A stretch of DNA of 64,000 nucleotides from Nemertoderma westbladi (lineage: Eukaryota > Animalia > Xenacoelomorpha): the NCBI GenBank assembly GCA_032718475.1, contig JAUCBJ010000968.1:1-64000 (forward strand), written 5' to 3'. Each line of letters opens with the position of its first letter. Position 1 is the stretch's first letter. Below are positions 2,875-38,659 of this stretch, one piece after another. The position numbers and the translations under genes are program-made. The notes beneath the pieces are model-generated. The model saw only the letters and a program-made list of their open reading frames with translations. It was not told the origin of the DNA and did not search any database.

Positions 2875-3047
2875 TTTGTGACACAATCTACTTAAATGAG
2901 CCAACTGGTACCATCAGATCGCCAAACCATCCAGAATTATATGCTCCCAATCTACAATGTGACTATCGTATAGAAGCTTACCCGGGAAAAATTATACAGC
3001 TTACGTTTTTGGCTTTCAGCACAGAAGACAATTTCGACAATTTAAAT
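2875..3047 (+). CDS. Exon: N-terminal half of a CUB domain (internal exon of predicted CUB-DEG/ENaC gene)
   Basis: ttttacag| acceptor and |gtaaga donor; encodes CDTIYLNEPTGTIRSPNHPELYAPNLQCDYRIEAYPGKIIQLTFLAFSTEDNFDNLN, the typical CUB pattern (G.I.SPN.P..Y..N..C.Y.I...G..I.LTF..F..E). Starts phase 1, ends phase 0. Confidence 0.92.
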
Positions 3048-3973
3048 GTAAGACAATTCATTTATAATAATAAATTATTTTAGCTAAGAATGTGCGAAAA
3101 TTTAAGTGTAAAATTTGAGTTTAGCTTGAAAATGAGTGATAGTCACTTAACTTAATAGCCTATTAGTGGCACAGTAGCATTTTGGTGTGGTGTGGTGAAG
3201 GCTGCTATTCTCCCGTCCTAAGTCGAAACCATGTAACTGGAAAAATGTAGTATTGAGGAATACTTACCTAAAATTAATGAATCTGCATTGGGCACGGCGA
3301 CATCTGCACACCAGAACATCTTACTTGTTTTAATTATAAAAAACAGGTACTTTTTCAATTATAAAAAAGCGGTACTTTTTAATAATATAATACAATCGAA
3401 ATGAATTAATATAAGAAACACTGATATTTAAAGAGGAACTGCCTATTTATTAGTCGAATGTTGAAAGATTTGATCATTTTGAAATAAAATATCTATAAAA
3501 TTTATATATAAGATCTCAGTTGGAATGGCCTCATTATCTCCGTACTTATTCAAGCTACACGTAATAATAGGACCAAAATCGCTCGTCACTGAACCTACCA
3601 ACATCTGTGGGAACATATTCGGATCCTGATTGCTAACATCCTCAGTTTCAATTTCGGTGTGGAACAACTATCTGTATGTGGACTTATATAACTCCGTATT
3701 ATAAACATTGAGTTTCAAGTATGTATGATGAGTGACCTCTATGAAAGACTTTCGAGAATGGCTATGGCTAATGAAACGTTTCATAGGGTTGGCAGCCTCA
3801 TCATAACATCTTCCTTATTTTTAATAGTAGGATATTTTTTTTAGTTGCCATTAGGGAATACAAATTTCAAATACCTAATACACTAAATGTTATGGACATG
3901 GGCAATCAATGAGATACAGTAGTTGTTTTAAATATCCCTCGTTATTCATGATTTGGGTTTCCTATAAACTGGA

Positions 3974-6900
3974 GCTTCAGATTGGTTTCTATGTGATTTA
4001 CTCTGCTTCAGATTGGTTTCTATGTGATTTACTCTGCATCAGATTGGTTTCTATGTGATTTACTCTGCATCAGATTGGTTTCTATGTGATTTACTCTGCA
4101 TCAGATTGGTTTCTATGTGATTTACTCTGCATCAGATTGGTTTCTATGTGATTTACTCTGCATCAGATTGGTTTCTATGTGATTTACTCTGCATCAGATT
4201 GGTTTCTATGTGATTTACTCTGCTTCAGATTGGTTTCTATGTGATTTACTCTGCATCAGATTGGTTTCTATGTGATTTACTCTGCATCAGATTGGTTTCT
4301 ATGTGATTTACTCTGCATCAGATTGGTTTCTATGTGATTTACTCTGCTTCAGATTGGTTTCTATGTGATTTACTCTGCATCAGATTGGTTTCTATGTGAT
4401 TTACTCTGCATCAGATTGGTTTCTATGTGATTTACTCTGCATCAGATTGGTTTCTATGTGATTTACTCTGCATCAGATTGGTTTCTATGTGATTTACTCT
4501 GCATCAGATTGGTTTCTATGTGATTTACTCTGCTTCAGATTGGTTTCTATGTGATTTACTCTGCATCAGATTGGTTTCTATGTGATTTACTCTGCATCAG
4601 ATTGGTTTCTATGTGATTTACTCTGCATCAGATTGGTTTCTATGTGATTTACTCTGCATCAGATTGGTTTCTATGTGATTTACTCTGCATCAGATTGGTT
4701 TCTATGTGATTTACTCTGCATCAGATTGGTTTCTATGTGATTTACTCTGCATCAGATTGGTTTCTATGTGATTTACTCTGCATCAGATTGGTTTCTATGT
4801 GATTTACTCTGCTTCAGATTGGTTTCTATGTGATTTACTCTGCATCAGATTGGTTTCTATGTGATTTACTCTGCATCAGATTGGTTTCTATGTGATTTAC
4901 TCTGCATCAGATTGGTTTCTATGTGATTTACTCTGCATCAGATTGGTTTCTATGTGATTTACTCTGCTTCAGATTGGTTTCTATGTGATTTACTCTGCAT
5001 CAGATTGGTTTCTATGTGATTTACTCTGCATCAGATTGGTTTCTATGTGATTTACTCTGCATCAGATTGGTTTCTATGTGATTTACTCTGCATCAGATTG
5101 GTTTCTATGTGATTTACTCTGCATCAGATTGGTTTCTATGTGATTTACTCTGCATCAGATTGGTTTCTATGTGATTTACTCTGCTTCAGATTGGTTTCTA
5201 TGTGATTTACTCTGCATCAGATTGGTTTCTATATGATTTACTCTGCATCAGATTGGTTTCTATGTGATTTACTCTGCATCAGATTGGTTTCTATGTGATT
5301 TACTCTGCATCAGATTGGTTTCTATGTGATTTACTCTGCATCAGATTGGTTTCTATGTGATTTACTCTGCATCAGATTGGTTTCTATGTGATTTACTCTG
5401 CATCAGATTGGTTTCTATGTGATTTACTCTGCATCAGATTGGTTTCTATGTGATTTACTCTGCTTCAGATTGGTTTCTATGTGATTTACTCTGCATCAGA
5501 TTGGTTTCTATGTGATTTACTCTGCTTCAGATTGGTTTCTATGTGATTTACTCTGCATCAGATTGGTTTCTATGTGATTTACTCTGCATCAGATTGGTTT
5601 CTATGTGATTTACTTTGCATCAGATTGGTTTCTATGTGATTTACTCTGCATCAGATTGGTTTCTATGTGATTTACTCTGCATCAGATTGGTTTCTATGTG
5701 ATTTACTCTGCATCAGATTGGTTTCTATGTGATTTACTCTGCATCAGATTGGTTTCTATGTGATTTACTCTGCATCAGATTGGTTTCTATGTGATTTACT
5801 CTGCATCAGATTGGTTTCTATGTGATTTACTCTGCATCAGATTGGTTTCTATGTGATTTACTCTGCATCAGATTGGTTTCTATGTGATTTACTCTGCATC
5901 AGATTGGTTTCTATGTGATTTACTCTGCTTCAGATTGGTTTCTATGTGATTTACTCTGCATCAGATTGGTTTCTATGTGATTTACTCTGCATCAGATTGG
6001 TTTCTATGTGATTTACTCTGCTTCAGATTGGTTTCTATGTGATTTACTCTGCATCAGATTGGTTTCTATGTGATTTACTCTGCTTCAGATTGGTTTCTAT
6101 GTGATTTACTCTGCATCAGATTGGTTTCTATGTGATTTACTCTGCATCAGATTGGTTTCTATGTGATTTACTCTGCATCAGATTGGTTTCTATGTGATTT
6201 ACTCTGCATCAGATTGGTTTCTATGTGATTTACTCTGCATCAGATTGGTTTCTATGTGATTTACTCTGCATCAGATTGGTTTCTATGTGATTTACTCTGC
6301 ATCAGATTGGTTTCTATGTGATTTACTCTGCATCAGATTGGTTTCTATGTGATTTACTCTGCATCAGATTGGTTTCTATGTGATTTACTCTGCATCAGAT
6401 TGGTTTCTATGTGATTTACTCTGCATCAGATTGGTTTCTATGTGATTTACTCTGCATCAGATTGGTTTCTATGTGATTTACTCTGCATCAGATTGGTTTC
6501 TATGTGATTTACTCTGCATCAGATTGGTTTCTATGTGATTTACTCTGCATCAGATTGGTTTCTATGTGATTTACTCTGCATCAGATTGGTTTCTATGTGA
6601 TTTACTCTGCATCAGATTGGTTTCTATGTGATTTACTCTGCATCAGATTGGTTTCTATGTGATTTACTCTGCATCAGATTGGTTTCTATGTGATTTACTC
6701 TGCATCAGATTGGTTTCTATGTGATTTACTCTGCATCAGATTGGTTTCTATGTGATTTACTCTGCATCAGATTGGTTTCTATGTGATTTACTCTGCATCA
6801 GATTGGTTTCTATGTGATTTACTCTGCATCAGATTGGTTTCTATGTGATTTACTCTGCATCAGATTGGTTTCTATGTGATTTACTCTGCATCAGATTGGT

Positions 6901-9900
6901 TTCTATGTGATTTACTCTGCATCAGATTGGTTTCTATGTGATTTACTCTGCTTCAGATTGGTTTCTATGTGATTTACTCTGCTTCAGATTGGTTTCTATG
7001 TGATTTACTCTGCATCAGATTGGTTTCTATGTGATTTACTCTGCATCAGATTGGTTTCTATGTGATTTACTCTGCATCAGATTGGTTTCTATGTGATTTA
7101 CTCTGCTTCAGATTGGTTTCTATGTGATTTACTCTGCATCAGATTGGTTTCTATGTGATTTACTCTGCATCAGATTGGTTTCTATGTGATTTACTCTGCA
7201 TCAGATTGGTTTCTATGTGATTTACTCTGCATCAGATTGGTTTCTATGTGATTTACTCTGCATCAGATTGGTTTCTATGTGATTTACTCTGCATCAGATT
7301 GGTTTCTATGTGATTTACTCTGCATCAGATTGGTTTCTATGTGATTTACTCTGCATCAGATTGGTTTCTATGTGATTTACTCTGCATCAGATTGGTTTCT
7401 ATGTGATTTACTCTGCATCAGATTGGTTTCTATGTGATTTACTCTGCTTCAGATTGGTTTCTATGTGATTTACTCTGCATCAGATTGGTTTCTATGTGAT
7501 TTACTCTGCATCAGATTGGTTTCTATGTGATTTACTCTGCATCAGATTGGTTTCTATGTGATTTACTCTGCTTCAGATTGGTTTCTATGTGATTTACTCT
7601 GCATCAGATTGGTTTCTATGTGATTTACTCTGCATCAGATTGGTTTCTATGTGATTTACTCTGCATCAGATTGGTTTCTATGTGATTTACTCTGCATCAG
7701 ATTGGTTTCTATGTGATTTACTCTGCATCAGATTGGTTTCTATGTGATTTACTCTGCATCAGATTGGTTTCTATGTGATTTACTCTGCATCAGATTGGTT
7801 TCTATGTGATTTACTCTGCATCAGATTGGTTTCTATGTGATTTACTCTGCATCAGATTGGTTTCTATGTGATTTACTCTGCATCAGATTGGTTTCTATGT
7901 GATTTACTCTGCATCAGATTGGTTTCTATGTGATTTACTCTGCATCAGATTGGTTTCTATGTGATTTACTCTGCATCAGATTGGTTTCTATGTGATTTAC
8001 TCTGCATCAGATTGGTTTCTATGTGATTTACTCTGCATCAGATTGGTTTCTATGTGATTTACTCTGCATCAGATTGGTTTCTATGTGATTTACTCTGCAT
8101 CAGATTGGTTTCTATGTGATTTACTCTGCATCAGATTGGTTTCTATGTGATTTACTCTGCATCAGATTGGTTTCTATGTGATTTACTCTGCATCAGATTG
8201 GTTTCTATGTGATTTACTCTGCATCAGATTGGTTTCTATGTGATTTACTCTGCATCAGATTGGTTTCTATGTGATTTACTCTGCATCAGATTGGTTTCTA
8301 TGTGATTTACTCTGCATCAGATTGGTTTCTATGTGATTTACTCTGCATCAGATTGGTTTCTATGTGATTTACTCTGCATCAGATTGGTTTCTATGTGATT
8401 TACTCTGCATCAGATTGGTTTCTATGTGATTTACTCTGCATCAGATTGGTTTCTATGTGATTTACTCTGCATCAGATTGGTTTCTATGTGATTTACTCTG
8501 CTTCAGATTGGTTTCTATGTGATTTACTCTGCATCAGATTGGTTTCTATGTGATTTACTCTGCATCAGATTGGTTTCTATGTGATTTACTCTGCATCAGA
8601 TTGGTTTCTATGTGATTTACTCTGCATCAGATTGGTTTCTATGTGATTTACTCTGCATCAGATTGGTTTCTATGTGATTTACTCTGCATCAGATTGGTTT
8701 CTATGTGATTTACTCTGCATCAGATTGGTTTCTATGTGATTTACTCTGCATCAGATTGGTTTCTATGTGATTTACTCTGCATCAGATTGGTTTCTATGTG
8801 ATTTACTCTGCATCAGATTGGTTTCTATGTGATTTACTCTGCATCAGATTGGTTTCTATGTGATTTACTCTGCATCAGATTGGTTTCTATGTGATTTACT
8901 CTGCATCAGATTGGTTTCTATGTGATTTACTCTGCATCAGATTGGTTTCTATGTGATTTACTCTGCATCAGATTGGTTTCTATGTGATTTACTCTGCATC
9001 AGATTGGTTTCTATGTGATTTACTCTGCATCAGATTGGTTTCTATGTGATTTACTCTGCATCAGATTGGTTTCTATGTGATTTACTCTGCATCAGATTGG
9101 TTTCTATGTGATTTACTCTGCATCAGATTGGTTTCTATGTGATTTACTCTGCATCAGATTGGTTTCTATGTGATTTACTCTGCATCAGATTGGTTTCTAT
9201 GTGATTTACTCTGCATCAGATTGGTTTCTATGTGATTTACTCTGCATCAGATTGGTTTCTATGTGATTTACTCTGCATCAGATTGGTTTCTATGTGATTT
9301 ACTCTGCATCAGATTGGTTTCTATGTGATTTACTCTGCTTCAGATTGGTTTCTATGTGATTTACTCTGCATCAGATTGGTTTCTATGTGATTTACTCTGC
9401 ATCAGATTGGTTTCTATGTGATTTACTCTGCATCAGATTGGTTTCTATGTGATTTACTCTGCATCAGATTGGTTTCTATGTGATTTACTCTGCATCAGAT
9501 TGGTTTCTATGTGATTTACTCTGCATCAGATTGGTTTCTATGTGATTTACTCTGCATCAGATTGGTTTCTATGTGATTTACTCTGCATCAGATTGGTTTC
9601 TATGTGATTTACTCTGCATCAGATTGGTTGCTATGTGATTTACTCTGCTTCAGATTGGTTTCTATGTGATTTACTCTGCATCAGATTGGTTTCTATGTGA
9701 TTTACTCTGCATCAGATTGGTTTCTATGTGATTTACTCTGCATCAGATTGGTTGCTATGTGATTTACTCTGCTTCAGATTGGTTTCTATGTGATTTACTC
9801 TGCATCAGATTGGTTTCTATGTGATTTACTCTGCATCAGATTGGTTTCTATGTGATTTACTCTGCATCAGATTGGTTTCTATGTGATTTACTCTGCATCA

Positions 9901-10107
9901 GATTGGTTTCTATGTGATTTACTCTGCATCAGATTGGTTTCTATGTGATTTACTCTGCATCAGATTGGTTTCTATGTGATTTACTCTGCATCAGATTGGT
10001 TTCTATGTGATTTACTCTGCATCAGATTGGTTTCTATGTGATTTACTCTGCATCAGATTGGTTGCTATGTGATTTACTCTGCATCAGATTGGTTTCTATG
10101 TGATTTA
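3974..10107. repeat. 31-bp minisatellite, ~200 copies, intronic
   Basis: Unit AGATTGGTTTCTATGTGATTTACTCTGCATC with a recurrent GCATC/GCTTC variant; nearly homogeneous. Confidence 0.98.
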
Positions 10108-12659: not shown

Positions 12660-12822
12660 GTTTATGACGGAATGGATTACAATGCTGCGCTAGTTGCTAC
12701 ATATTCGGGAAGTACTACACCTCCTCCTATGAATAGTTCTAATAACGCACTCTTTTTGAGATTCACTTCCGATTCAAGTGTAAATCAACCTGGATTTGAA
12801 GCCGCTTACATTGCTATTGATG
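12660..12822 (+). CDS. Exon: C-terminal half of the CUB domain
   Basis: ttcttacag| acceptor, |gtaagt donor; VYDGMDYNAALVATYSGSTTPPPMNSSNNALFLRFTSDSSVNQPGFEAAYIAID has the CUB VYDG and FTSDSSV...GF.A.Y motifs. Phase 0 start matches the 2875-3047 exon; ends phase 1. Confidence 0.93.
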
Positions 12823-13109
12823 GTAAGTTTCCGCCGAACAAAATAGTACCTAAAATTTGATGGATACCAATTGTCCGGGTACCAATGAATCTAGGATTCT
12901 ATTAAGTTCCAATGCCATTACGGAACACTGGCGTAATTCAATGGAAAATTATATCATTAAGGAATCTGTCAGTCCCACACATCCCATAGACACTAGACAG
13001 TATCCGTACAGAAAAGGCAGAATAATTTCTAAGTGCATAAGTATATAAACGATTGGTATCCTATTTACCCAAGATATGTTAATGGATGAATTATACCTAT
13101 CAATACATA

Positions 13110-13115
13110 TTTATT
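13110..13115 (-). promoter_or_regulatory. Candidate AATAAA polyadenylation signal of the nested BTB-BACK-TLDc gene
   Basis: TTTATT on + strand about 70 nt past the stop codon at 13185. Confidence 0.5.
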
Positions 13116-13184
13116 CATTTGTGCTACAGTCGCAGCCTTACAAGGTGATTCGTCACCTCGTCATGCCATTAATCACATTAGACA

Positions 13185-14173
13185 TCACCGCCGTACCCCC
13201 ACAGTAGTGATAGCTTGAACGCTCTCCTTTAATGTAAATACTTCGTAATCATGTATAGCGAAGCAGGCGTCGCCCATTAACAAAGATCCTGGTAGGTCCC
13301 GAGCTGAGTACGAATGGGGAAACCTACTCCGTGAGGCGTTGTTTACATTGCAATTGTTCGCGAGCATCAGATCGGGACCCGCACCAAATGTGGGCCCGTA
13401 ACTGGGATGGCTGCACACCGCGAAGGACGGTTGCTGAATCGGGAACTGCATGGGGGGATATTCCTCCTTGTTTGCGAGAGAGAATAGAAAGGTGTTGTTG
13501 GATTCGGAATACTTCCCCTCTGATTGGTAGCGGCCAGAGAGGCAGCCAACATCCCAGGCCACGTCGCTGTAACCCCCGCAGATGCAACCGTTGGTTCCCT
13601 GTACAATGATGTAAGTGGGAGTGTAACCATCGCAGAGCTGATGGAACGCCGGACCTGTGTAGCCGTCTCGTGATGCGCGGTACAGAAGCCGCCACTGCTG
13701 TCGCATACTACCGTACCACAGCGCGAGGTACCGCTGCAACGGTCTGTATTGGTTCGTGAGAATATCCGTATCCATGAACAGCCGATACACAATCCGCGGT
13801 TGAAGTCGCAGATCTGTTCCCATCTCCCACACCCTTCTCGGAATAGCCGCCATCCGATATCGCTCCAAACATATCTCATTAGGAATTATCCGTGTTGATT
13901 CAACCTCCTTGGCGAATATCCTCGACTCGATCAACATGAAGCGAATGAAGGGAAATAAAGGCTCTACGAGTTTCCTCACCCGCTCCCGATCGTCGTCATC
14001 CCATTGGTCGCTACGGATGTGCGTCTGCGCTTGGAAACAGGCCCATCGCATTACGGATCGCCACACTTCCGACTCCTCCATTATGAACATATCGGAGCTG
14101 AGGAGATAGATTATTGAGTCTGATGATTGCTCCAACCACGCTTGAGATAAAACACATTCCATGGAATTTTCTC
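13185..14173 (-). CDS. BTB-BACK-TLDc protein, exon 2 (BACK + TLDc domains)
   Basis: Acceptor ttattaattacag|GA. BACK motifs (LLSSD.F.MEESEVWRSVMRWA; LFPFIRF.LI). TLDc motifs (WRLLYRASRDGY...FHQLCDG..PT; GGYSDVAW; TFLFSL; YGPTFGAGPDL; FAIHDYEVF). 989 nt, in phase with exon 1. Confidence 0.93.
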
Positions 14174-14559
14174 CTGTAATTAATAAAAGTATCAATGGTA
14201 ATTAACAATATGTATGAATACTTTAGAGCAGTGGAAAGTTATATAGCATTGTCCACTTTCTGGAATACTTGTCTGAGCATGGTTACGACCGCAAAACAAA
14301 TAAAATAGAATAACAATTATTTGTTGAGTAATACAATGAATTTACAGTAATTAACTTAAAAATTACTTCATATAATAGCATATTTCAAAAAGGGAATCTC
14401 TTAATTAATATTTTTATATTCAGAAATTATTTAAAGAAGTTCAAAAAGTAAGAATAATTCATTCACATGCTGTTAAATGTGTGCTGTTCACATCACATAT
14501 CATCTTTCACGTTCGAAGTATAAACGTTCATTTTAGTTATTTTCTTTTCTTATTGTTTA

Positions 14560-15200
14560 CTAGTGGCGTGCAAGCACACGGGATGTAAATCTTCACCATT
14601 ACTACACAACATAGACAGATACAGGGAAACGTAGGTATTTTGTTTCAGCTGATGAAACAAAATACCTACGTTTCCCTCTCATGATTCTAATTACACCAAT
14701 TATTGTAGTATTACAGTTGACGGCCTACATCATTACTAAAATTCATTCACCTGGAATTAGTAATAAATTCACATTCGCCCATACCTTCACTGAGAAGGCT
14801 ATCAGCTGTATAAAATATTTAACACACACTAATGCTACCCTATTAAGAATTTCAAGTTCCTAAGGGCGTGGAGTTTAGCAAACAGTATGGGTGTACTAAG
14901 TACAATAATCTTGGCAACCTCATCGACTTATACTAAGCCTGTTCGAATTAGATAAAGCCATTCTTCATCATGAACACCAGCTGTTATTGGTGTTATTTTA
15001 CCATTGCGTCTATGGCACGTTTGTTTATTTCATATTTTGCAAAAACTAATGACTGTATTTTTCTGAAAATGGCTTTATATAATACACCCATTCAGACCAT
15101 ACTCTACAGGAGGGTACTAAAAACAACACAATTCACCGGATAGTTTCGGAGCCTTTCGTGTGTCAAACAAACAGACAGACAAACAGACACGATTTTCTTA
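14560..15200 (-). mobile_element. Probable non-autonomous Helitron-like element in the nested gene's intron
   Basis: ACTAG plus short hairpin (CGTG..CACG) at ~14560 and a (CAGA/CAAA)n tract at ~15165-15190, the same layout as the Helitrons at 44.8-57 kb. No clean TC terminus seen. Confidence 0.4.
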
Positions 15201-15539
15201 CAGTAAGTAAATCTGAAGATTTACCAATAAATAAATAAAGGGGAGATTTAACTTAAAGATTTCCTGTTCACTAGAAAGTGAATAATTGAGCAAGGAAGTG
15301 GCAGGGAGGCAGTGGTTGATCTGACGCTGGCTGTTAGTCTGAAACGGCTCGGTGCAGCTCTGGTTCAACCCCCATTGATGTGCTATCATTAATTTTTTAC
15401 ACATTGGTTACGGCAGAATGCAGGTTATTGTTTTCTATCCAATAGAAGTGTCTTTCTAGTAGGATCATAACTTTGTTAATGTACGTACAACAACTTGTTT
15501 GGGCAGCTACCAAACATCGAGGTCAGCCCTACAAATAAA

Positions 15540-16620
15540 TTATATTAAAAGCATGTCCAATCATAAAGCGAGTGGATTAGATGAAATCCCTGCAGAGGTA
15601 TGGAAAACAGGAGTGCTAAACAGTAAATTATTGGATGTTTGCAACCGGATGCTTAAAGTGCAACCGGATGTGGAAGGGGAAAAGAAAAGCGAAGACCAAT
15701 TTGGAATAAATGTAAATTAAATCCTCTCTCCAAAAATGGTAAATTCGGTATGCCAACACACTATCGTGGGATCAGTCTGCTTGTGGTAGCTGCTGAAATA
15801 TACATCAAAATGATTATATATTGAATCAGACCTCACATAGAGAAACTGCTGCTTAAGAGCCAAAACGGATTTCGACCAAGTAGATAAACAATAGCTCAGA
15901 TACTAACGATATGGAGGCTACTTCAAAAAAGTATTCGACTCCATCAATAGAGGTATAATGCTAGAAATGGTAAGAGCTTATGGAATACTAGAAGTAATTG
16001 TCGCTGGCATTGGATTGTTATATTGTGACAGAGGAGCACAGGTACTCTCACCGGATGGTGAAAATGAGTTCTTCTCAATCCTGACTGGCGTACTGCAAGG
16101 TGACACACTGACGCCATTACTATTCATAATTTATTACAGGGCCTATTGTATTACGCAATGAAGGCGGCCACAAAGTGAGACTATCTTTGATTCACACTAT
16201 AAGAACGCAAGTTCTTTCGAGCCACAGTGTACAGTTATACGAGAATGAAACCTGGACACTTGACGAAATCCCTTAAACAACGATTTTATTGCTGCTGCTC
16301 AAAAGACTACTAAGGGCAGCCCTAAACATCAGCTGGAGACATCAAACCATTCTTCATGAACACTGATTAATATTCAGTGGACATTGATGGGAAAGTAAAC
16401 ACGAGGTCTTCCCTGACCTTTACTGGCAAACAACAAACAACACAATGAAAGCATAGATGTGAACGACCAGCTCATATAGGCATATACACATACAGTATAG
16501 ACCAACTTGAAAGGGATACTGGACTTTGGAGAATCGAAATTGCGCCAACTATTGAGAATCGGGAAGTCTGGGAGAATCTCATTTCCACTGGCCGAGCTCG
16601 CTTGACCTAGTATGTAGTAG
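15540..16620 (+). mobile_element. Decayed RTE-clade-like non-LTR retrotransposon fragment
   Basis: KASGLDEIPAEVWK and GVLQGDTLTPLLFII reverse-transcriptase motifs with stops/frameshifts; 3' end CTCGCTTGACCTAGTATGTAGTAG homologous to the copy ending at ~35460. Confidence 0.85.
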
Positions 16621-16640
16621 GCCTATTACTTTGTTCTCAC

Positions 16641-17190
16641 CTATGAACTGAATAAATTTTCTGAGCATTTCTCGACGATAATCTTCATCAAAACTTCCCT
16701 GATTCATGAGATTAATTGACACGTTGAAAAGATGGCAAACGTTCTCAGGTGTCATCATTTTCAGCATGTGGTTTGTGCACTCATCCACAAGGTCAGGCAA
16801 ACCGAGATCCTGTGCCATAGCTAATAGTTGGAACACAGTGGAATCAAGAATGGTTATAGTACCCGTGTATATATATTTGAGAACGGGTTTAAATATATCC
16901 GGTTCGTACCCCCTCTGTTTAACAGTGAGATGTTTATTAGAGGGTTGAAATAATTCCTTGGCGTAGTTTTGTCGGTAGGACCTACAACGTGTCCATATCA
17001 TGAGTTTGTGTGCGAATACTTTAATCTCCTTTACTCCTATTATAAACTCGACGTCGGAACATTCAATGTCTTCTAAAAGACCCGCCAAATCTTCTATTAA
17101 AATATCATGAGTCACAACTTTTGTCTTTGTTTCAACTGCCTTTACATTTCTTTTCATCTCGTAACTGGTTTCAGAATCAGAGATATCCAT
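16641..17190 (-). CDS. BTB-BACK-TLDc protein, exon 1 (BTB/POZ domain)
   Basis: ATG at 17190; BTB motifs SDVEFIIG...FAHKLMI..RC, FKPVLKYIYTG, LLAMA..LGL.DLVDEC. Donor ATAG|gtgaga after 16641 (550 nt, phase 1). Spliced product is 512 aa. Confidence 0.92.
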
Positions 17191-17544
17191 CTTTGTTTAC
17201 TTTTTATTTGCTATAAGTAATACAATGAAGAAATAGAAATGTGACAATAATTATCAGATACGTATGATGACCGATTATTATGTATTTATCATTGGGTAAT
17301 TATCATATCATTAGTTTCTTGATTGTTATTGCATGGTGTACCTACAATAGGTTATTAGTAAACGAAAAGTTTATTTGCAACAAATATTACACAATAAATA
17401 CGTACAACATTAGCTAAATCTGCACAGTACACTTAATATTATGAGTTGTTTCCATCACGACTAATAAATTTATTTAAAACAAAGATCTCTAAGTTTGCCA
17501 AAAATATTTATCAAAGCAAACCATATTTGATCTCTTCAATATAG

Positions 17545-17773
17545 AGTTCGGTGACACGGGTTGGGCTGGTGAAGAAGCATCATTCTCGTTTCTTGGCGGC
17601 ACCAGTTTCACCGACAACGCCTGGAAGCAATTCCTAAAACGATCAACCATCAGCGATTACAGTGACGTGCTGCGATTAGCGATTTTTGATAAGGAACTTG
17701 TGCAAAAAGCCGGGCATGCTAAGGAAGATTTTATACTGCAATGCTCGTATAATGGTAGAGAATGCAATTATAC
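17545..17773 (+). CDS. DEG/ENaC channel exon (end of finger region; GH..EDFILQC motif)
   Basis: caatatag| acceptor, |gtaagt donor; encodes EFGDTGWAGEEASFSFLGGTSFTDNAWKQFLKRSTISDYSDVLRLAIFDKELVQKAGHAKEDFILQCSYNGRECNYT. Absent from the ORF track. Phase 1 start, phase 2 end. Confidence 0.88.
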
Positions 17774-19219: not shown

Positions 19220-19326
19220 ATTTTTTAAAGAGGTAATTAATAAAAAGTACGGTCGTTGCTACATATTCAACGATGGGATAGACACCCAGGAAACGTACAA
19301 AACTACACAAACCGGTTCAGAATTTG
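19220..19326 (+). CDS. DEG/ENaC channel exon (YGxCYxFN signature)
   Basis: ttgcag| ... |gtaagt; FFKEVINKKYGRCYIFNDGIDTQETYKTTQTGSEFG; phase 2 to 1. Confidence 0.93.
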
Positions 19327-19864
19327 GTAAGTTTTTTCAATATTCTAACGGCCTTATTTTGCACGACAAGGTGTATTTCGATCAATTTAAAATATAATTT
19401 GATTGCGATTTTGAATAACATTGTGACCATGGAGCCAGAACAACACTCACCAAAACGTATCGTTTCGAGAAAAACGAAAAAACTATCTCATTTGCCTCAG
19501 TGTGGATCCCGTCTCATGATCCGATCCCAGGATTTTGGGTTTGTGTTTGAGTTTGTGGTTTTGCTTCCACTTGGGTTAGTGTGGTGTGGGTAGATTTACC
19601 TCTGATATTTTAACACTTTAATGTTATGTTGGTTATTCTGGTTCTCATATTATTTTCTCAATATATCTTCCAAATGGATACGGCAACGGCTCTATGATTT
19701 TAACATATGATGCATACATAACTCCATGTATTGTTCTGCCTATATATATTTATGCGACTCTGTCTCTACTTTACAGAGTTCTTAACCTATGTATTATTGA
19801 TTTATTAAACTTTTCACTAAAGGGTTGAAGTTGTATTATTGATTTATTAAACTTTTCACTAAAG

Positions 19865-23100: not shown

Positions 23101-26100
23101 GGGTGAGGATGGATGTAATAGAGTAGAGGGGAGCGTAGTGTGAGGATGGATGTAATAGAGTAGAGGGGGCCGCAGTGTGAGGATGGAGGTAATAGAGTAG
23201 AGGGGAGCGCAGTGTGGGGATGGAGGTAATAGAGTAGAGGGGAGCGCAGTGTGGGGATGGAGGTAATAGAGTAGAGGGGAGCGCAGTGTGGGGATGGAGG
23301 TAATAGAGTAGAGGGGAGCGCAGTGTGAGGATGGAGGTAATAGAGTAGAGGGGAGCGCAGTGTGAGGATGGAGGTAATAGAGTAGAGGGGAGCGCAGTGT
23401 GAGGATGGAGGTAATAGAGTAGAGGGGAGCGCAGTGTGAGGATGGATGTAATAGAGTAGAGGAGAGCGCAGTGTGAGGATGGAGGTAATAGAGTAGAAGG
23501 GAGCGCAGTGTGAGGATGGAGGTAATAGAGTAGAGGGGAGCGCAGTGTGAGGATGGATGTAATAGAGTAGAGGAGAGCGCAGTGTGAGGATGGAGGTAAT
23601 AGAGTAGAGGGGAGCGCAGTGTGAGGATGGATGTAATAGAGTAGAGGGGAGCGCAGTGTGGGGATGGAGGTAATAGAGTAGAGGGGAGCGTAGTGTGAGG
23701 ATGGAGGTAATAGAGTAGAGGGGAGCGCAGTGTGAGGATGGAGGTAATAGAGTAGAGGGGAGCGCAGTGTGAGGATGGAGGTAATAGAGTAGAGGGGAGC
23801 GCAGTGTGAGGATGGAGGTAATAGAGTAGAGGGGAGCGCAGCGTGAGGATGGAGGTAATAGAGTAGAGGGGAGCGCAGTGTGAGGATGGAGGTAATAGAG
23901 TAGAGGGGAGCGCAGTGTGAGGATGGATGTAATAGAGTAGAGGGGAGCGCAGTGTGAGGATGGAGGTAATAGAGTAGAGGGGGGCGCCGTGTGAGGATGG
24001 AGTAATAGAGTAGAGGAGAGCGCAGTGTGAGGATGGAGGTAATAGAGTAGAAGGGAGCGCAGTGTGAGGATGGAGGTAATAGAGTAGAGGGGAGCGCAGT
24101 GTGAGGATGGAGGTAATAGAGTAGAGGGGAGCGCAGTGTGAGGATGGATGTAATAGAGTAGAGGGGGGCGCAGTGTGAGGATGGAGGTAATAGAGTAGAG
24201 GGGAGCGCAGTGTGAGGATGGCGGTAATAGAGTAGAGGGGAGCGCAGCGTGAGGATGGATGTAATAGAGTAGAGGGGAGCGCAGTGAGGGGATTGAGGTA
24301 ATAGAGTAGAGGGGAGCGCAGTGTGAGGATGGAGGTAATAGAGTAGAGGGGAGCGCAGTGTGAGGATGGAGGTAATAGAGTAGAGGGGAGCGCAGTGTGA
24401 GGATGGAGGTAATAGAGTAGAGTGGAGCGCAGTGTGAGGATGGATGTAATAGAGTAGAGGGGGGCGCAGTGTGAGGATGGATGTAATAGAGTAGAGGGGA
24501 GCGTAGTGTGAGGATGGAGGTAATAGAGTAGAGGGGAGCGCAGTGTGAGGATGGATGTAATAGAGTAGAGGGGGGCGCAGTGTGAGGATGGAGGTAATAG
24601 AGTAGAGGGGGGCGCAGTGTGAGGATGGATGTAATAGAGTAGAGGAGAGCGCAGTGTGAGGATGGAGGTAATAGAGTAGAGGGGAGCGCAGTGTGAGGAT
24701 GGATGTAATAGAGTAGAGGGGAGCGCAGTGTGAGGATGGAGGTAATAGAGTAGAGGGGAGCGCAGTGTGAGGATGGAGGTAATAGAGTAGAGGGGAGCGC
24801 AGTGTGAGGATGGAGGTAATAGAGTAGAGGGGAGCGCAGTGTGAGGATGGAGGTAATAGAGTAGAGGGGAGCGCAGTGTGAGGATGGATGTAATAGAGTA
24901 GAGGGGAGCGTAGTGTGAGGATGGAGGTAATAGAGTAGAGGGGAGCGCAGTGTGAGGATGGATGTAATAGAGTAGAGGGGAGCGCAGTGTGGGGATGGAG
25001 GTAATAGAGTAGAGGGGAGCGCAGTGAGGGGATGGAGGTAATAGAGTAGAGGGGAGCGCAGTATGAGGATGGAGGTAATAGAGTAGAGGGGGGCGCAGTG
25101 TGAGGATGGATGTAATAGAGTAGAGGGGGGCGCAGTGTGAGGATGGATGTAATAGAGTAGAGGGGAGCGTAGTGTGAGGATGGAGGTAATAGAGTAGAGG
25201 GGAGCGCAGTGTGGGGATGGAGGTAATAGAGTAGAGGGGGGCGCAGTGTGAGGATGGAGGTAATAGAGTAGAGGGGGGCGCAGTGTGAGGATGGATGTAA
25301 TAGAGTAGAGGGGGGCGCAGTGTGAGGATGGATGTAATAGAGTAGAGGGGAGCGTAGTGTGAGGATGGAGGTAATAGAGTAGAGGGGAGCGCAGTGTGAG
25401 GATGGAGGTAATAGAGTAGAGTGGAGCGCAGTGTGAGGATGGATGTAATAGAGTAGAGGGGAGCGCAGTATGAGGATGGAGGTAATAGAGTAGAGGGGGG
25501 CGCAGTGTGAGGATGGATGTAATAGAGTAGAGGGGGGCGCAGTGTGAGGATGGATGTAATAGAGTAGAGGGGAGCGTAGTGTGAGGATGGAGGTAATAGA
25601 GTAGAGGGGAGCGCAGTGTGAGGATGGATGTAATAGAGTAGAGGGGAGCGCAGCGTGAGGATGGATGTAATAGAGTAGATGGGAGCTCAGTGAGGGGATG
25701 GAGGTAATAGAGTAGAGTGGAGCGCAGTGTGAGGATGGATGTAATAGAGTAGAGGGGAGCGCAGTGTGAGGATGGAGGTAATAGAGTAGAGGGGAGCGCA
25801 GTGTGAGGATGGAGGTAATAGAGTAGAGGGGAGCGCAGTGTGAGGATGGAGGTAATAGAGTAGAGGGGGGCGCAGTGTGAGGATGGAGGTAATAGAGTAG
25901 AGGGGAGCGCAGTGTGAGGATGGAGGTAATAGAGTAGAGGGGAGCGCAGCGTGAGGATGGATGTAATAGAGTAGAGGGGAGCGCAGTGAGGGGATGGAGG
26001 TAATAGAGTAGAGTGGAGCGCAGTGTGAGGATGGATGTAATAGAGTAGAGGGGAGCGCAGTGTGAGGATGGAGGTAATAGAGTAGAGGGGAGCGCAGTGT

Positions 26101-29100
26101 GAGGATGGAGGTAATAGAGTAGAGGGGAGCGCAGTGTGAGGATGGATGTAATAGAGTAGAGGGGAGCGCAGTATGAGGATGGAGGTAATAGAGTAGAGGG
26201 GGGCGCAGTGTGAGGATGGAGGTAATAGAGTAGAGGGGAGCGCAGTGTGAGGATGGATGTAATAGAGTAGAGGGGAGCGCAGCGTGAGGATGGATGTAAT
26301 AGAGTAGATGGGAGCTCAGTGAGGGGATGGAGGTAATAGAGTAGAGTGGAGCGCAGTGTGAGGATGGATGTAATAGAGTAGAGGGGAGCGCAGTGTGAGG
26401 ATGGAGGTAATAGAGTAGAGGGGAGCGCAGTGTGAGGATGGAGGTAATAGAGTAGAGGGGAGCGCAGTGTGAGGATGGAGGTAATAGAGTAGAGGGGAGC
26501 GCAGTATGAGGATGGAGGTAATAGAGTAGAGGGGGGCGCAGTGTGAGGATGGATGTAATAGAGTAGAGGGGGGCGCAGTGTGAGGATGGATGTAATAGAG
26601 TAGAGGGGAGCGTAGTGTGAGGATGGAGGTAATAGAGTAGAGGGGAGCGCAGTGTGAGGATGGAGGTAATAGAGTAGAGGGGAGCGCAGCGTGAGGATGG
26701 AGGTAATAGAGTAGAGGGGAGCGCAGTGTGGGGATGGAGGTAATAGAGTAGAGGGGAGCGCAGTGTGAGGATGGAGGTAATAGAGTAGAGGGGGCGCAGT
26801 GTGAGGATGGAGGTAATAGAGTAGAGGGGAGCGCAGTGTGAGGATGGAGGTAATAGAGTAGAGGGGGGCGCAGTGTGAGGATGGAGGTAATAGAGTAGAG
26901 GGGAGCGCAGTGTGAGGATGGAGGTAATAGAGTAGATGGGAGCGCAGTGAGAGGATGGAGGTAATAGAGTAGAGGGGAGCGCAGTGAGGGGATGGAGGTA
27001 ATAGAGTAGAGGGGAGCGCAGTGTGAGGATGGAGGTAATAGAGTAGAGGGGAGCGCAGTGTGAGGATGGAGGTAATAGAGTAGAGGGGAGCGCAGTGTGG
27101 GGATGGAGGTAATAGAGTAGAGGGGAGCGCAGTGTGAGGATGGAGGTAATAGAGTAGAGGGGAGCGCAGTGTGAGGATGGAGGTAATAGAGTAGAGGGGA
27201 GCGCAGTGTGAGGATGGAGGTAATAGAGTAGAGGGGAGCGCAGTGTGAGGATGGAGGTAATAGAGTAGAGGGGAGCGCAGTGTGAGGATGGAGGTAATAG
27301 AGTAGAGGGGAGCGCAGTGTGAGGATGGAGGTAATAGAGTAGAGGGGAGCGCAGTGTGAGGATGGAGGTAATAGAGTAGAGGGGAGCGCAGTGTGAGGAT
27401 GGAGGTAATAGAGTAGAGGGGAGCGCAGTGTGGGGATGGAGGTAATAGAGTAGAGGGGAGCGCAGTGTGAGGATGGAGGTAATAGAGTAGAGGGGAGCGC
27501 AGTGTGAGGATGGAGGTAATAGAGTAGAGGGGAGCGCAGTGTGAGGATGGAGGTAATAGAGTAGAGGGGAGCGCAGTGTGAGGATGGAGGTAATAGAGTA
27601 GAGGGGAGCGCAGTGTGAGGATGGAGGTAATAGAGTAGAGGGGAGCGCAGTGTGAGGATGGAGGTAATAGAGTAGAGGGGAGCGCAGTGTGAGGATGGAG
27701 GTAATAGAGTAGAGGGGAGCGCAGTGTGAGGATGGAGGTAATAGAGTAGAGGGGAGCGCAGTGTGAGGATGGAGGTAATAGAGTAGAGGGGAGCGCAGTG
27801 TGAGGATGGAGGTAATAGAGTAGAGGGGAGCGCAGTGTGAGGATGGAGGTAATAGAGTAGAGGGGAGCGCAGTGTGGGGATGGAGGTAATAGAGTAGAGG
27901 GGAGCGCAGTGTGAGGATGGAGGTAATAGAGTAGAGGGGAGCGCAGTGTGAGGATGGAGGTAATAGAGTAGAGGGGAGCGCAGTGTGAGGATGGAGGTAA
28001 TAGAGTAGAGGGGAGCGCAGTGTGAGGATGGAGGTAATAGAGTAGAGGGGAGCGCAGTGTGAGGATGGAGGTAATAGAGTAGAGGGGAGCGCAGTGTGAG
28101 GATGGAGGTAATAGAGTAGAGGGGAGCGCAGTGTGAGGATGGAGGTAATAGAGTAGAGGGGAGCGCAGTGTGAGGATGGAGGTAATAGAGTAGAGGGGAG
28201 CGCAGTGTGAGGATGGAGGTAATAGAGTAGAGGGGAGCGCAGTGTGAGGATGGAGGTAATAGAGTAGAGGGGAGCGCAGTGTGAGGATGGAGGTAATAGA
28301 GTAGAGGGGAGCGCAGTGTGAGGATGGAGGTAATAGAGTAGAGGGGAGCGCAGTGTGAGGATGGAGGTAATAGAGTAGAGGGGAGCGCAGTGTGAGGATG
28401 GAGGTAATAGAGTAGAGGGGAGCGCAGTGTGAGGATGGAGGTAATAGAGTAGAGGGGAGCGCAGTGTGAGGATGGAGGTAATAGAGTAGAGGGGAGCGCA
28501 GTGTGAGGATGGAGGTAATAGAGTAGAGGGGAGCGCAGTGTGAGGATGGAGGTAATAGAGTAGAGGGGAGCGCAGTGTGAGGATGGAGGTAATAGAGTAG
28601 AGGGGAGCGCAGTGTGAGGATGGAGGTAATAGAGTAGAGGGGAGCGCAGTGTGAGGATGGAGGTAATAGAGTAGAGGGGAGCGCAGTGTGAGGATGGAGG
28701 TAATAGAGTAGAGGGGAGCGCAGTGTGAGGATGGAGGTAATAGAGTAGAGGGGAGCGCAGTGTGAGGATGGAGGTAATAGAGTAGAGGGGAGCGCAGTGT
28801 GAGGATGGAGGTAATAGAGTAGAGGGGAGCGCAGTGTGAGGATGGAGGTAATAGAGTAGAGGGGAGCGCAGTGTGAGGATGGAGGTAATAGAGTAGAGGG
28901 GAGCGCAGTGTGAGGATGGAGGTAATAGAGTAGAGGGGAGCGCAGTGTGAGGATGGAGGTAATAGAGTAGAGGGGAGCGCAGTGTGAGGATGGAGGTAAT
29001 AGAGTAGAGGGGAGCGCAGTGTGAGGATGGAGGTAATAGAGTAGAGGGGAGCGCAGTGTGAGGATGGAGGTAATAGAGTAGAGGGGAGCGCAGTGTGAGG

Positions 29101-31328
29101 ATGGAGGTAATAGAGTAGAGGGGAGCGCAGTGTGAGGATGGATGTAATAGAGTAGAGGGGAGCGCAGTGTGAGGATGGAGGTAATAGAGTAGAGGGGAGC
29201 GCAGTGTGAGGATGGAGGTAATAGAGTAGAGGGGAGCGCAGTGTGAGGATGGAGGTAATAGAGTAGAGGGGAGCGCAGTGTGAGGATGGATGTAATAGAG
29301 TAGAGGGGAGCGCAGTGTGAGGATGGAGGTAATAGAGTAGAGGGGAGCGCAGTGTGAGGATGGAGGTAATAGAGTAGAGGGGAGCGCAGTGTGAGGATGG
29401 AGGTAATAGAGTAGAGGGGAGCGCAGTGTGAGGATGGAGGTAATAGAGTAGAGGGGAGCGCAGTGTGAGGATGGAGGTAATAGAGTAGAGGGGAGCGCAG
29501 TGTGAGGATGGAGGTAATAGAGTAGAGGGGAGCGCAGTGTGAGGATGGAGGTAATAGAGTAGAGGGGAGCGCAGTGTGAGGATGGATGTAATAGAGTAGA
29601 GGGGAGCGCAGTGTGAGGATGGAGGTAATAGAGTAGAGGGGAGCGCAGTGTGAGGATGGAGGTAATAGAGTAGAGGGGAGCGCAGTGTGAGGATGGAGGT
29701 AATAGAGTAGAGGGGAGCGCAGTGTGAGGATGGAGGTAATAGAGTAGAGGGGAGCGCAGTGTGAGGATGGAGGTAATAGAGTAGAGGGGAGCGCAGTGTG
29801 AGGATGGAGGTAATAGAGTAGAGGGGAGCGCAGTGTGAGGATGGAGGTAATAGAGTAGAGGGGAGCGCAGTGTGAGGATGGAGGTAATAGAGTAGAGGGG
29901 AGCGCAGTGTGAGGATGGAGGTAATAGAGTAGAGGGGAGCGCAGTGTGAGGATGGAGGTAATAGAGTAGAGGGGAGCGCAGTGTGAGGATGGAGGTAATA
30001 GAGTAGAGGGGAGCGCAGTGTGAGGATGGAGGTAATAGAGTAGAGGGGAGCGCAGTGTGAGGATGGAGGTAATAGAGTAGAGGGGAGCGCAGTGTGAGGA
30101 TGGAGGTAATAGAGTAGAGGGGAGCGCAGTGTGAGGATGGAGGTAATAGAGTAGAGGGGAGCGCAGTGTGAGGATGGAGGTAATAGAGTAGAGGGGAGCG
30201 CAGTGTGAGGATGGAGGTAATAGAGTAGAGGGGAGCGCAGTGTGAGGATGGAGGTAATAGAGTAGAGGGGAGCGCAGTGTGAGGATGGAGGTAATAGAGT
30301 AGAGGGGAGCGCAGTGTGAGGATGGATGTAATAGAGTAGAGGGGAGCGCAGTGTGAGGATGGAGGTAATAGAGTAGAGGGGAGCGCAGTGTGAGGATGGA
30401 GGTAATAGAGTAGAGGGGAGCGCAGTGTGAGGATGGAGGTAATAGAGTAGAGGGGAGCGCAGTGTGAGGATGGAGGTAATAGAGTAGAGGGGAGCGCAGT
30501 GTGAGGATGGAGGTAATAGAGTAGAGGGGAGCGCAGTGTGAGGATGGAGGTAATAGAGTAGAGGGGAGCGCAGTGTGAGGATGGAGGTAATAGAGTAGAG
30601 GGGAGCGCAGTGTGAGGATGGAGGTAATAGAGTAGAGGGGAGCGCAGCGTGAGGATGGAGGTAATAGAGTAGAGGGGAGCGCAGTGTGAGGATGGAGGTA
30701 ATAGAGTAGAGGGGAGCGCAGTGTGAGGATGGAGGTAATAGAGTAGAGGGGAGCGCAGTGTGAGGATGGAGGTAATAGAGTAGAGGGGAGCGCAGTGTGA
30801 GGATGGAGGTAATAGAGTAGAGGGGAGCGCAGCGTGAGGATGGAGGTAATAGAGTAGAGGGGAGCGCAGCGTGAGGATGGAGGTAATAGAGTAGAGGGGA
30901 GCGCAGTGTGAGGATGGAGGTAATAGAGTAGAGGGGAGCGCAGCGTGAGGATGGAGGTAATAGAGTAGAGGGGAGCGCAGTGTGAGGATGGAGGTAATAG
31001 AGTAGAGGGGAGCGCAGTGTGAGGATGGATGTAATAGAGTAGAGGGGAGCGCAGTGTGGGGATGGAGGTAATAGAGTAGAGGGGAGCGCAGCGTGAGGAT
31101 GGAGGTAATAGAGTAGAGGGGAGCGCAGTGTGAGGATGGATGTAATAGAGTAGAGGGGAGCGCAGCGTGAGGATGGAGGTAATAGAGTAGAGGGGAGCGC
31201 AGTGTGAGGATGGATGTAATAGAGTAGAGGGGAGCGCAGTGTGAGGATGGAGGTAATAGAGTGGAGGGGAGCGCAGTGTGAGGATGGATGTAATAGAGTA
31301 GAGGGGAGCGCAGTGTGAGGATGGATGT
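20117..31328. repeat. 37-bp purine-rich minisatellite, ~300 copies, intronic
   Basis: Unit GTGTGAGGATGGAGGTAATAGAGTAGAGGGGAGCGCA with single-base variants; about 11.2 kb. Confidence 0.98.
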
Positions 31329-32203: not shown

Positions 32204-32417
32204 CAAAAGATTCGCAAACAAGGAAAACCGTATGGTAATTGCGCTACGAAATGGTCGGATATTCCGAGTCTGGATGGGTTGACAGTCGCTGGTAACTATA
32301 CGAGACGAGCCTGTGAGAAGTATTGTCTGGCTAAAAAGGTGCTGGCCGAATGTGGATGTGCAGACAATTACATCCTAGAGAACACAACAATTTGTAAACC
32401 AATTAATATAACCCAAG
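32204..32417 (+). CDS. DEG/ENaC channel exon (cysteine-rich thumb, part 1)
   Basis: tttacag| ... |gtgata; QKIRKQGKPYGNC...YTRRACEKYCLAKKVLAECGC...TICKPINITQ; phase 0 to 1. Confidence 0.93.
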
Positions 32418-32442
32418 GTGATACATTATAATGACACCATAA

Positions 32443-33107: not shown

Positions 33108-33238
33108 AAAAGTGTCGCTTGCGTGTCTACAACAGTTACAAAACGCAGAAATTCAACTGTAGTTGCCATCCTGCTTGTTACCAAGAGAACTACCAAGCGT
33201 TCAGTAGCGCCTCTCGATGGCCTTCTCAACAATACATG
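33108..33238 (+). CDS. DEG/ENaC channel exon (thumb part 2; WPS motif)
   Basis: tttccag| ... |gtaagt; EKCRLRVYNSYKTQKFNCSCHPACYQENYQAFSSASRWPSQQYM; phase 1 to 0. Confidence 0.93.
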
Positions 33239-35933: not shown

Positions 35934-36058
35934 TGGTACTTTATGGAGAGACTAAGTGAAAATCAGTCTGAGTCAATGGATTCTATTGCCAGTAAATTCA
36001 TTCAACTTTTAGCATCGGACCCAGTGAATCCTGGAAGAAATGCCATGGACGTAATGAG
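35934..36058 (+). CDS. DEG/ENaC channel exon (knuckle region)
   Basis: ttttag| ... |gtattg; WYFMERLSENQSESMDSIASKFIQLLASDPVNPGRNAMDVMR; phase 0 to 2, exactly bridging the neighbouring exons. Confidence 0.82.
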
Positions 36059-36404: not shown

Positions 36405-38362
36405 AGGCCTACTATATACATAGTATATTGTACTCGTAGGCCTACTATAAACATAGTATATTGTACTCGTAGGCCTACTATATACATAGTATATTGTACT
36501 CGTAGGCCTGCTACTATATACATAGTATATTATACTCGTAGGCCTACTATATACATACATAGTATATTATACTCGTAGGCCTACTATATACATAGTATAT
36601 TATACTCATAGGCCTACTATATACATAGTAGGCCTACTATATACATAGTATATTATACTCGTAGGCCTACTATATACATAGTATATTATACTCGTAGGCC
36701 TACTATATACATAGTATATTGTACTCGTAGGCCTGCTACTATATACATAGTATATTATACTCGTAGGCCTACTATATACATACATAGTATATTATACTCG
36801 TAGGCCTACTATATACATAGTATATTATACTCATAGGCCTACTATATACATAGTAGGCCTACTATATACATAGTATATTATACTCGTAGGCCTACTATAT
36901 ACATAGTATATTATACTCGTAGGCCTACTATATACATAGTATATTGTACTCGTAGGCCTGCTACTATATACATAGTATATTATACTCGTAGGCCTACTAT
37001 ATACATACATAGTATATTATACTCGTAGGCCTACTATATACATAGTATATTATACTCATAGGCCTACTATATACATAGTATATTATACTCGTAGGCCTAC
37101 TATATACATACATAGTATATTATACTCGTAGGCCTACTATATACATAGTATATTATACTCGTAGGCCTACTATATACATAGTATATTGTACTCGTAGGCC
37201 TGCTACTATATACATAGTATATTATACTCGTAGGCCTACTATATACATACATAGTATATTATACTCGTAGGCCTACTATATACATAGTATATTATACTCA
37301 TAGGCCTACTATATACATAGTAGGCCTACTATATACATAGTATATTATACTCGTAGGCCTACTATATACATAGTATATTATACTCATAGGCCTACTATAT
37401 ACATAGTAGGCCTACTATATACATAGTATATTATACTCGTAGGCCTACTATATACATAGTATATTATACTCGTAGGCCTACTATATACATAGTATATTAT
37501 ACTCGTAGGCCTACTATATACATAGTATATTAGACTCGTAGGCCTACTATATACATAGTAGGCCTACTATATACATAGTAGGCCTACTATATACATAGTA
37601 GGCCTACTATATACATAGTATATTATACTCGTAGGCCTACTATATACATAGTATATTAGACTCGTAGGCCTACTATATACATAGTATAGTATACTCGTAG
37701 GCCTACTATATACATAGTAGGCCTACTATATACATAGTATATTAGACTCGTAGGCCTACTATATACATAGTAGGCCTACTATATACATAGTATATTATAC
37801 TCGTAGGCCTACTATATACATAGTATATTATACTCGTAGGCCTACTATATACATAGTATATTATACTCGTAGGCCTACTATATACATAGTATATTATACT
37901 CGTAGGCCGACTATATACATAGTATATTAGACTCGTAGGCCTACTATATACATAGTATAGTATACTCGTAGGCCTACTATATACATAGTAGGCCTACTAT
38001 ATACATAGTAGGCCTACTATATACATAGTATATTATACTCGTAGGCCTACAATATACATAGTATATTATACTCGTAGGCCTACTATATACATAGTATATT
38101 ATACTCGTAGGCCTACTATATACATAGTATATTATACTCGTAGGCCTACTATATACAAAGTATATTACACTCGTAGGCCTACTATATACATAGTAGGCCT
38201 ACTATATACATAGTATATTATAGTCGTGGCCTACTATATACATAGTATATTATACTCGTAGGCCTACTATATACATAGTATATTATAGTCGTGGCCTACT
38301 ATATACATAGTATATTATACTCGTAGGCCTACTATATACATAGTATATTATACTCGTAGGCC
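36405..38362. repeat. 33-bp/20-bp quasi-palindromic minisatellite
   Basis: TAGGCCTACTATATACATAGTATATTATACTCG mixed with the short unit TAGGCCTACTATATACATAG. Confidence 0.95.
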
Positions 38363-38418
38363 ATTGATATAGAATTCTAAAATAATATATGCGGCAATTG
38401 TATATTATTTACTTTCAG

Positions 38419-38659
38419 AGAGAATTTGGTGCGCGTTGAAATATTTATGGAATCCTACGATTACCAATTTATAAACGAGAAAGCCCAGTACATCTGGTCG
38501 GACCTTCTAAGCGACTTTGGTGGAACTATAGGACTCTATTTAGGACTAAGCGCCATATCTGTAGTAGAAATGTTTGAAGCTCTTATGTCTTTTATCCGAG
38601 TTCTTATTTTACAATCTCAACGGAAAGTGTCTCCTATTGACCTTCGCAGTAAAGTGTAG
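38419..38659 (+). CDS. DEG/ENaC channel terminal exon (TM2, GxS filter, C-terminus)
   Basis: tttcag| acceptor, phase 2; RENLVRVEIFMESYDYQFINEKAQYIWSDLLSDFGGTIGLYLGLSAISVVEMFE...KV*, the DEG/ENaC TM2 signature. Confidence 0.96.

Follow-up and report, generated by a model that had tools for sequence, protein, structure and literature searches.

A predicted DEG/ENaC channel gene with a CUB domain probably in the finger region from the xenacoelomorph Nemertoderma westbladi

The channel gene and its exons

We analyzed a 64,000-nucleotide stretch of the genome of Nemertoderma westbladi (GenBank assembly GCA_032718475.1, contig JAUCBJ010000968.1, positions 1 to 64,000 of the forward strand; here called the window), which is animal DNA with long satellite arrays and debris of long interspersed nuclear elements (LINEs) and long terminal repeat (LTR) elements. 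Between positions 2875 and 38659, its plus strand carries nine exons of a gene for a DEG/ENaC ion channel, into which a CUB domain encoded by the first two exons is very probably spliced. The initial annotation had chained these exons through GT-AG sites and compatible phases and had read the first two as one CUB domain and those from 17545 onward as DEG/ENaC; the exon ends, the phases, and the open frame were all reproduced, as were both domain assignments. Every exon has AG/GT ends, 16 of the 16 splice ends in use are canonical, and the joined exons give 515 codons without a stop or frameshift. This is a real, intact gene fragment.

The domain content was established by scanning Pfam exon by exon (12 sequences in all). 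Exon 1 (2875-3047, phase 1-0) encodes the N-terminal half of the CUB domain (Pfam CUB 1-51; E = 2.5e-10) and exon 2 (12660-12822, phase 0-1) encodes its C-terminal half (61-110; E = 8e-9), each half scoring above the curated cut-off of PF00431. Exon 3 (17545-17773, phase 1-2) supplies a short linker, finger helices alpha2-alpha3 (named after the predicted model of an acoel relative), and palm strand beta3; it was assigned through the matches of relatives, and it and exon 8 gave no ASC match in the per-exon scan. Exon 4 (19220-19326, phase 2-1) encodes a beta-ball/palm segment (ASC 169-201; E = 0.026), exon 5 (19865-20028, phase 1-0) palm/beta-ball strands (ASC 206-260; E = 0.0095), exon 6 (32204-32417, phase 0-1) the first part of the cysteine-rich thumb (ASC 272-330; E = 1.6e-8), and exon 7 (33108-33238, phase 1-0) the thumb end and the WPS motif (ASC 349-383; E = 2.6e-4). 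Exon 8 (35934-36058, phase 0-2), placed by its splice sites, frame, and alignment, encodes a long knuckle, and exon 9 (38419-38659, phase 2-stop) encodes beta11-beta12, the second transmembrane helix (TM2), and a short tail (ASC 403-454; E = 2.2e-14). The ASC matches of exons 4 to 7 and 9 run in profile order, the same scan found no EGF family match in the nine exons, and tblastn with 78 proteins recovered all of them except exon 8. The exon 5 acceptor sits inside an exact 42-base pair (bp) tandem duplication (19790-19875, plus strand), which creates a second, upstream AG whose use would run into a stop. Three satellite arrays lie in introns of the gene: one of 31 bp × 198 (3977-10107; 99%), one of 37 bp × 302 (20137-31325; 97%) with an extreme GC skew, and one of a 33-bp family (36405-38362).

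The channel core retains 13 cysteines, each present in 33 to 34 of 34 aligned rows, and a 14th conserved cysteine falls in an exon outside the window. TM2 is canonical, with a G-L-S filter of the G-x-S type and a Ser at the DEG position, and the C-terminal tail has no PY motif and ends in a class I PDZ-type motif. By its best profile match, the gene would belong to clade B of the DEG/ENaC scheme as set out in parts of PMC9822975 and PMC10507113. As in other members of the family, its product would assemble into a trimeric, possibly heteromeric, cation-conducting channel.

No exon for the first transmembrane helix (TM1) lies in the window. A hidden Markov model of TM1 and beta1-beta2, built from 30 relatives and run against the six frames of the window, gave a best E of 0.36, on the minus strand; this agrees with the initial annotation, which had seen no TM1 or start exon between the CUB and ENaC exons. 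Two other gene starts were considered: the TM1-profile and tblastn searches reject a TM1 or start exon anywhere from the CUB to exon 3, and exon 3 is rejected as a first exon, the first in-frame Met occurring only in exon 5. With no TM1 exon in the window, the gene start lies upstream and the CUB exons lie inside the gene on the same strand; we infer that TM1, beta1-beta2, alpha1, and perhaps more modules are encoded by exons upstream of the window. A direct splice from 12822 to 17545, combined with an upstream TM1, is to be expected with high probability from the sequence. The interval between these two exons had been described as occupied by an antisense gene, and this gene is real: an intact, two-exon BTB-BACK-TLDc gene of 512 amino acids (aa) by Pfam (17190-16641 and 14173-13185, minus strand), which is not part of the channel and fills most of the CUB-to-core intron. 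The start codon of this nested gene is 355 bp away from the acceptor of exon 3, and LINE debris is present in the nested gene's own intron. An additional phase 1-1 linker exon in 12900-17544 was also considered and rejected: the splice-site scan found none, using a simple matrix trained on the window's own sites that may miss weak sites (in leave-one-out trials, 3 of 10 true acceptors scored poorly).

The module, its relatives, and its place in the finger

The window CUB has only two cysteines; the second canonical pair is absent, and a loop is ~6 residues shorter. One-disulfide CUBs exist, so the single pair marks a subtype. In the alignment, Tyr, Glu, Asp, and Asp occupy the Ca2+-site columns, which is the signature of Ca2+-binding CUBs, and the domain probably binds Ca2+. 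The best solved match of CUB exon 1 is cubilin. The linker from the CUB to the palm anchor is 62 residues long and contains no furin site (no R-x-K/R-R), and the counterpart of helix alpha2 lies only ~25 residues after the CUB.

Searches with exon 3 alone recovered 42 relatives at E ≤ 0.001, 28 with an ASC match; a CUB match occurs in 5 of the 42 and other modules (LDLa, SRCR, kringle, F5/8, ShK) occur in 4, a count free of any bias from a CUB in the query. An acoel-type query returned 24 matches, 20 with both CUB and ASC, a proportion biased upward because the query region itself included a CUB. A word-seeded exon 3 search among longer proteins gave nothing at E ≤ 0.01 (21 candidates), and an Atlas search gave no usable match for exon 3 or the acoel relative. 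Among 22 CUB-bearing relatives, a TM1-like helix precedes the CUB in 13, whose layout is thus complete, 8 records begin within the extracellular loop, and 1 shows a beta2 motif but no TM1; this layout supports the earlier placement of the CUB in the finger. The order TM1-LDLa-CUB-core is found in many acoel proteins, including the RefSeq models XP_075238800.1 (Convolutriloba macropyga) and XP_063721483.1 (Symsagittifera roscoffensis), and a further model, XP_063714445.1, has LDLa and CUB. Three records (P0031, P0057, and P0060) fill contigs of 2.6-3.0 kb, as transcripts would, and one 637-aa piece with CUB and core is identical to residues 258-894 of a RefSeq model, suggesting an uninterrupted frame. 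Acoel relatives carry LDLa before the CUB, and by analogy further modules upstream of the window CUB are plausible. The initial annotation had allowed for unannotated homologues: homologues do exist, but they are already present in RefSeq as uncharacterised acoel proteins. The acoel-type LDLa-CUB channels (P0015, P0029, and P0048-P0064) lack the HG motif before TM1 and mostly have a G-W-S filter, so that unusual selectivity or gating may be suspected from their sequences.

To place the module in a fold, we used an AlphaFold2 model of XP_075238800.1 computed from a 32-sequence alignment (predicted local distance difference test score [pLDDT], 76.5; predicted template modeling score [pTM], 0.61). 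The model runs from TM1 through two strands and a long helix ending at residue 188 to an LDLa region of low confidence, a well-folded CUB, and a disordered 59-residue linker (421-479), after which come the rest of the finger helices and the palm. This order puts the insert between finger helices alpha1 and alpha2, and the CUB of the window gene is likely to occupy the same position. The model core matches FaNaC, gamma-ENaC, and ASIC1 with Z scores of 24-33 (FaNaC, Z = 32.8 over 411 residues, root mean square deviation [rmsd] 4.7; gamma-ENaC, Z = 32.0 over 351 residues, rmsd 3.3), and residues 293-421 match the neuropilin-1 CUB (Z = 18.7 over 119 residues, rmsd 2.1). The best solved match of the family profile is beta-ENaC (E = 9e-86); among the 60 solved chains listed for that profile, channels and CUB/LDLa proteins are always separate entries. 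The same stretch of the finger is in use in better-studied channels: the GRIP domain of ENaC sits between alpha1 and alpha2 (part of PMC6197857), and passages of PMC11026163 assign to this corner the binding of agonist peptide in FaNaC and a proposed matrix-tether site in mechanosensitive members.

Judged from these sequences, the CUB insertion is one case of a wider pattern involving many module types. Channels of Patiria bear six or seven LDLa repeats, to which one of them adds SRCR; the modules of a Ptychodera channel are four LDLa and ShK; in a Branchiostoma channel, F5/8 and kringle are part of a finger of ~1,100 residues; and a Convolutriloba protein combines a CUB, two SRCR, a weak SUEL lectin match, and TSP1. 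The large modular-finger models are P0030 (XP_078661500.1), P0065, P0019, P0021, and P0040, of which P0021 and P0030 include TM1 and P0019, P0040, and P0065 are N-terminally incomplete. In the remaining members from starfish, brittle star, urchin, and crinoid, the loop consists of low-complexity sequence only, mostly with furin-type sites. The alpha1-alpha2 loop of the finger thus appears, across these predicted proteins, to behave as a socket for modules. The acoel LDLa-CUB models and the Patiria, Ptychodera, and Branchiostoma relatives resemble the window gene in having modules just before the same finger/palm segment, a comparison that rests on database models rather than on studied proteins.

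The acoel models further share a long knuckle with the window gene: it measures 53 aa in the window protein, 48-72 in 18 of 18 complete acoel-type rows, and 33-38 in all 12 of the other complete rows (3 incomplete ones were left out). A W/F after the first thumb-side Cys, as in the window, is found in 20 of 20 acoel-type rows versus 0 of 13 others, and the Phe site in 18 of 20 versus 1 of 13. The acoel models differ in having a two-disulfide CUB and a long linker with a furin site, whereas the window gene has a one-disulfide CUB, a short linker, and a canonical filter. The window core is 27-34% identical to full-length acoel and modular relatives.

Proposed mode of action and competing explanations

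The reading that we favor, with a probability that we estimate at roughly 0.45 from the sequences, is that the gene encodes a partner-tethered, partner-gated cation-channel subunit with a CUB in its finger. The CUB would bind an extracellular protein partner, probably with Ca2+; binding or pull by the partner would then shift the finger against the thumb, and this shift would open the pore, as peptide binding moves the finger in FaNaC. Since the gap to alpha2 is so short and holds no furin site, force or docking could be transmitted straight to the finger. The weakest inference of the proposal is that the partner influences gating and not position alone. The nearest published precedent is EGAS-1 to -4 of Caenorhabditis elegans, which are DEG/ENaC-type proteins with an added extracellular module, found in sensory neurons (part of PMC9478639); their module is EGF, whereas that of the window gene is a CUB.

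Several observations weigh against this reading. Homomers of EGAS-1 to -4 gave no current in oocytes (part of PMC10424705). Three core trees were computed (34, 33, and 33 rows; P0053 was dropped for want of an anchor match and other fragments were not included), and none of them placed the window core within the acoel CUB clade; two joined it to echinoderm, hemichordate, and amphioxus proteins (88/84 and 95/87), and the third gave no resolution. The window protein is a long branch with 1.5 changes per site, and the approximately unbiased test does not reject a placement as sister of the acoel group (p = 0.209). The window CUB is 39% identical to a tolloid CUB versus 24-33% to 19 channel CUBs, and besides lacking the second cysteine pair it has no acoel hairpin insertion. 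The acoel-type linkers span 80-222 aa, and 18 of the 21 contain a furin site, versus 62 aa and none in the window. In view of these CUB and linker differences, the support that the acoel proteins lend to the layout is one of analogy and perhaps not of common descent: the window CUB may have been gained separately from the acoel channel CUBs, on a core that the trees suggest to be a separate deep branch outside the acoel clade.

The best-surviving alternative, which we nevertheless regard as rather unlikely, accepts the same gene and lets the CUB only position or cluster the channel (at a synapse, cilium, or matrix) or recruit an auxiliary protein, with gating left to protons, peptides, ions, or the like. 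Neto, SOL-1, and LEV-10 are CUB proteins with such a clustering or tuning role at other channels, and Neto2 is among the CUB matches listed for solved structures. Localization would also account for module types that vary freely among relatives while the core stays conserved, for the relatives that fill the same loop with low-complexity sequence only, for the PDZ-type motif at the end of the tail, and for the disordered linker on which the CUB of the modeled acoel relative hangs. Against this alternative, the linker of the window gene from CUB to alpha2 is only ~25 residues long, and the loop in question is the gating-control site in both ENaC and FaNaC.

It is improbable that the CUB exons are part of a different gene, on the same strand and inside a long finger intron of the channel, or are always skipped, so that exon 17545 joins a TM1-side exon directly. 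The phase match at 12822->17545 is expected by chance one time in three and is weak evidence alone, the closer affinity of the domain to cubilin and tolloid CUBs than to channel CUBs fits a separate gene, and the frame, if continued past the exon 2 donor, ends in a stop after 12 codons. The splice-site scan also lists eight weak phase-1 terminal-exon candidates of 25-49 codons each in 12900-17544, but the relatives compared have no match at any of the eight positions, and the candidates fall mostly within the antisense gene or LINE debris. The exon 2 donor, moreover, is a consensus GTAAGT exactly at the CUB domain boundary, and close relatives have a CUB at this very position.

Quite improbable, too, is a CUB that serves as an autoinhibitory cap like the ENaC GRIP domain, keeping the channel shut until a protease cuts the loop. 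The position is the same as that of GRIP, furin-type sites come after the CUB in most acoel-type linkers, and most relatives without a module have such sites in the finger; the window linker has none, and cleavage at one point behind the CUB would not free it from the N-terminal half. A nonconducting subunit or decaying copy is very improbable, since the long branch, the repeat-laden introns, and the loss of the HG motif and mostly G-W-S filter of the acoel relatives are set against an uninterrupted frame, canonical splice ends, a full set of 13 core cysteines, and a canonical TM2.

Comparison with solved channels helps to delimit the gated-subunit proposal. Vertebrate ENaC alpha/beta/gamma/delta (SCNN1; PDB codes 6WTH and 9BLR) resemble the acoel relative's model in core fold and in having an extra element between alpha1 and alpha2, but that element is the GRIP sheet with furin sites, and they have a PY motif, whereas the window gene has a whole CUB, a furin-free linker, and no PY. 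The window gene is not a vertebrate ENaC, with the finger upstream of the CUB lying outside the view of the window. FaNaC (Aplysia, 7YVB; Malacoceros, 8ON7) has the same fold as the acoel model and a ligand that acts at the finger (part of PMC11026163), but the ligand is a short peptide in a finger-helix pocket, with no appended folded module, in contrast to the CUB of the window gene. In the literature searched, we found no description of CUB-, LDLa-, or kringle-bearing DEG/ENaCs, the supplements of phylogeny papers, which may list such sequences, being outside that search; term look-ups in parts of DEG/ENaC phylogeny and review papers, including PMC9822975 and PMC10507113, gave no passage on CUB or LDL domains. 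For acoels, the CUB-ENaC layout is already latent in RefSeq, and it is apparently undescribed.

The stimuli of DEG/ENaCs known to us are small or physical (protons, peptides, bile acids, proteases, and force), and to our knowledge the model of a force-sensing tether in this family has so far had no defined, removable tether domain. If the favored reading is true, a protein-binding domain at the gating-control loop would give a channel that responds fast to macromolecular cues, or else a mechanosensor that carries its own tether, the CUB being a candidate tether unit that could be deleted or swapped as one piece. The family offers a natural series on a conserved core, from no module through one CUB and LDLa plus CUB to 1,100-residue arrays. 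A broader proposition, which we hold to be doubtful, is that throughout an ENaC-related lineage (acoels, echinoderms, hemichordates, amphioxus, and this animal) the alpha1-alpha2 loop would be a socket for CUB, LDLa, SRCR, kringle, F5/8, ShK, and TSP1, yielding exon-shuffled ionotropic receptors for proteins, glycans, or matrix, with CUB gained at least twice and GRIP as the vertebrate occupant. The arrangement bears on the origin of the ENaC GRIP domain and on how acoels sense their surroundings: amiloride-sensitive channels mark putative chemosensory cells of acoels (part of PMC8097308).

Other features of the window

An intronless PSMD9/Nas2 gene lies at 58497-59132 on the plus strand and encodes 211 aa with Nas2_N and PDZ domains; its open reading frame is about equally close (~50% identity) to orthologues from sea urchin, fish, and bivalve, and it could be the main copy or a retrocopy. 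Arrays of 146-147-bp repeats occupy 44978-57169, together with scattered copies of another element and a 297-bp triplet, and a satellite of 27 bp × 79 lies at 61859-64000. A degraded Gypsy-like LTR element at ~140-2800 (plus strand), in which pieces of zinc knuckle, protease, reverse transcriptase, and RNase H were read by eye, has short direct repeats at 144-261 and 2664-2795 and ends ~80 bp short of the CUB exon. On the minus strand, 42253-43903 contains pieces of LINE reverse transcriptase in three frames.

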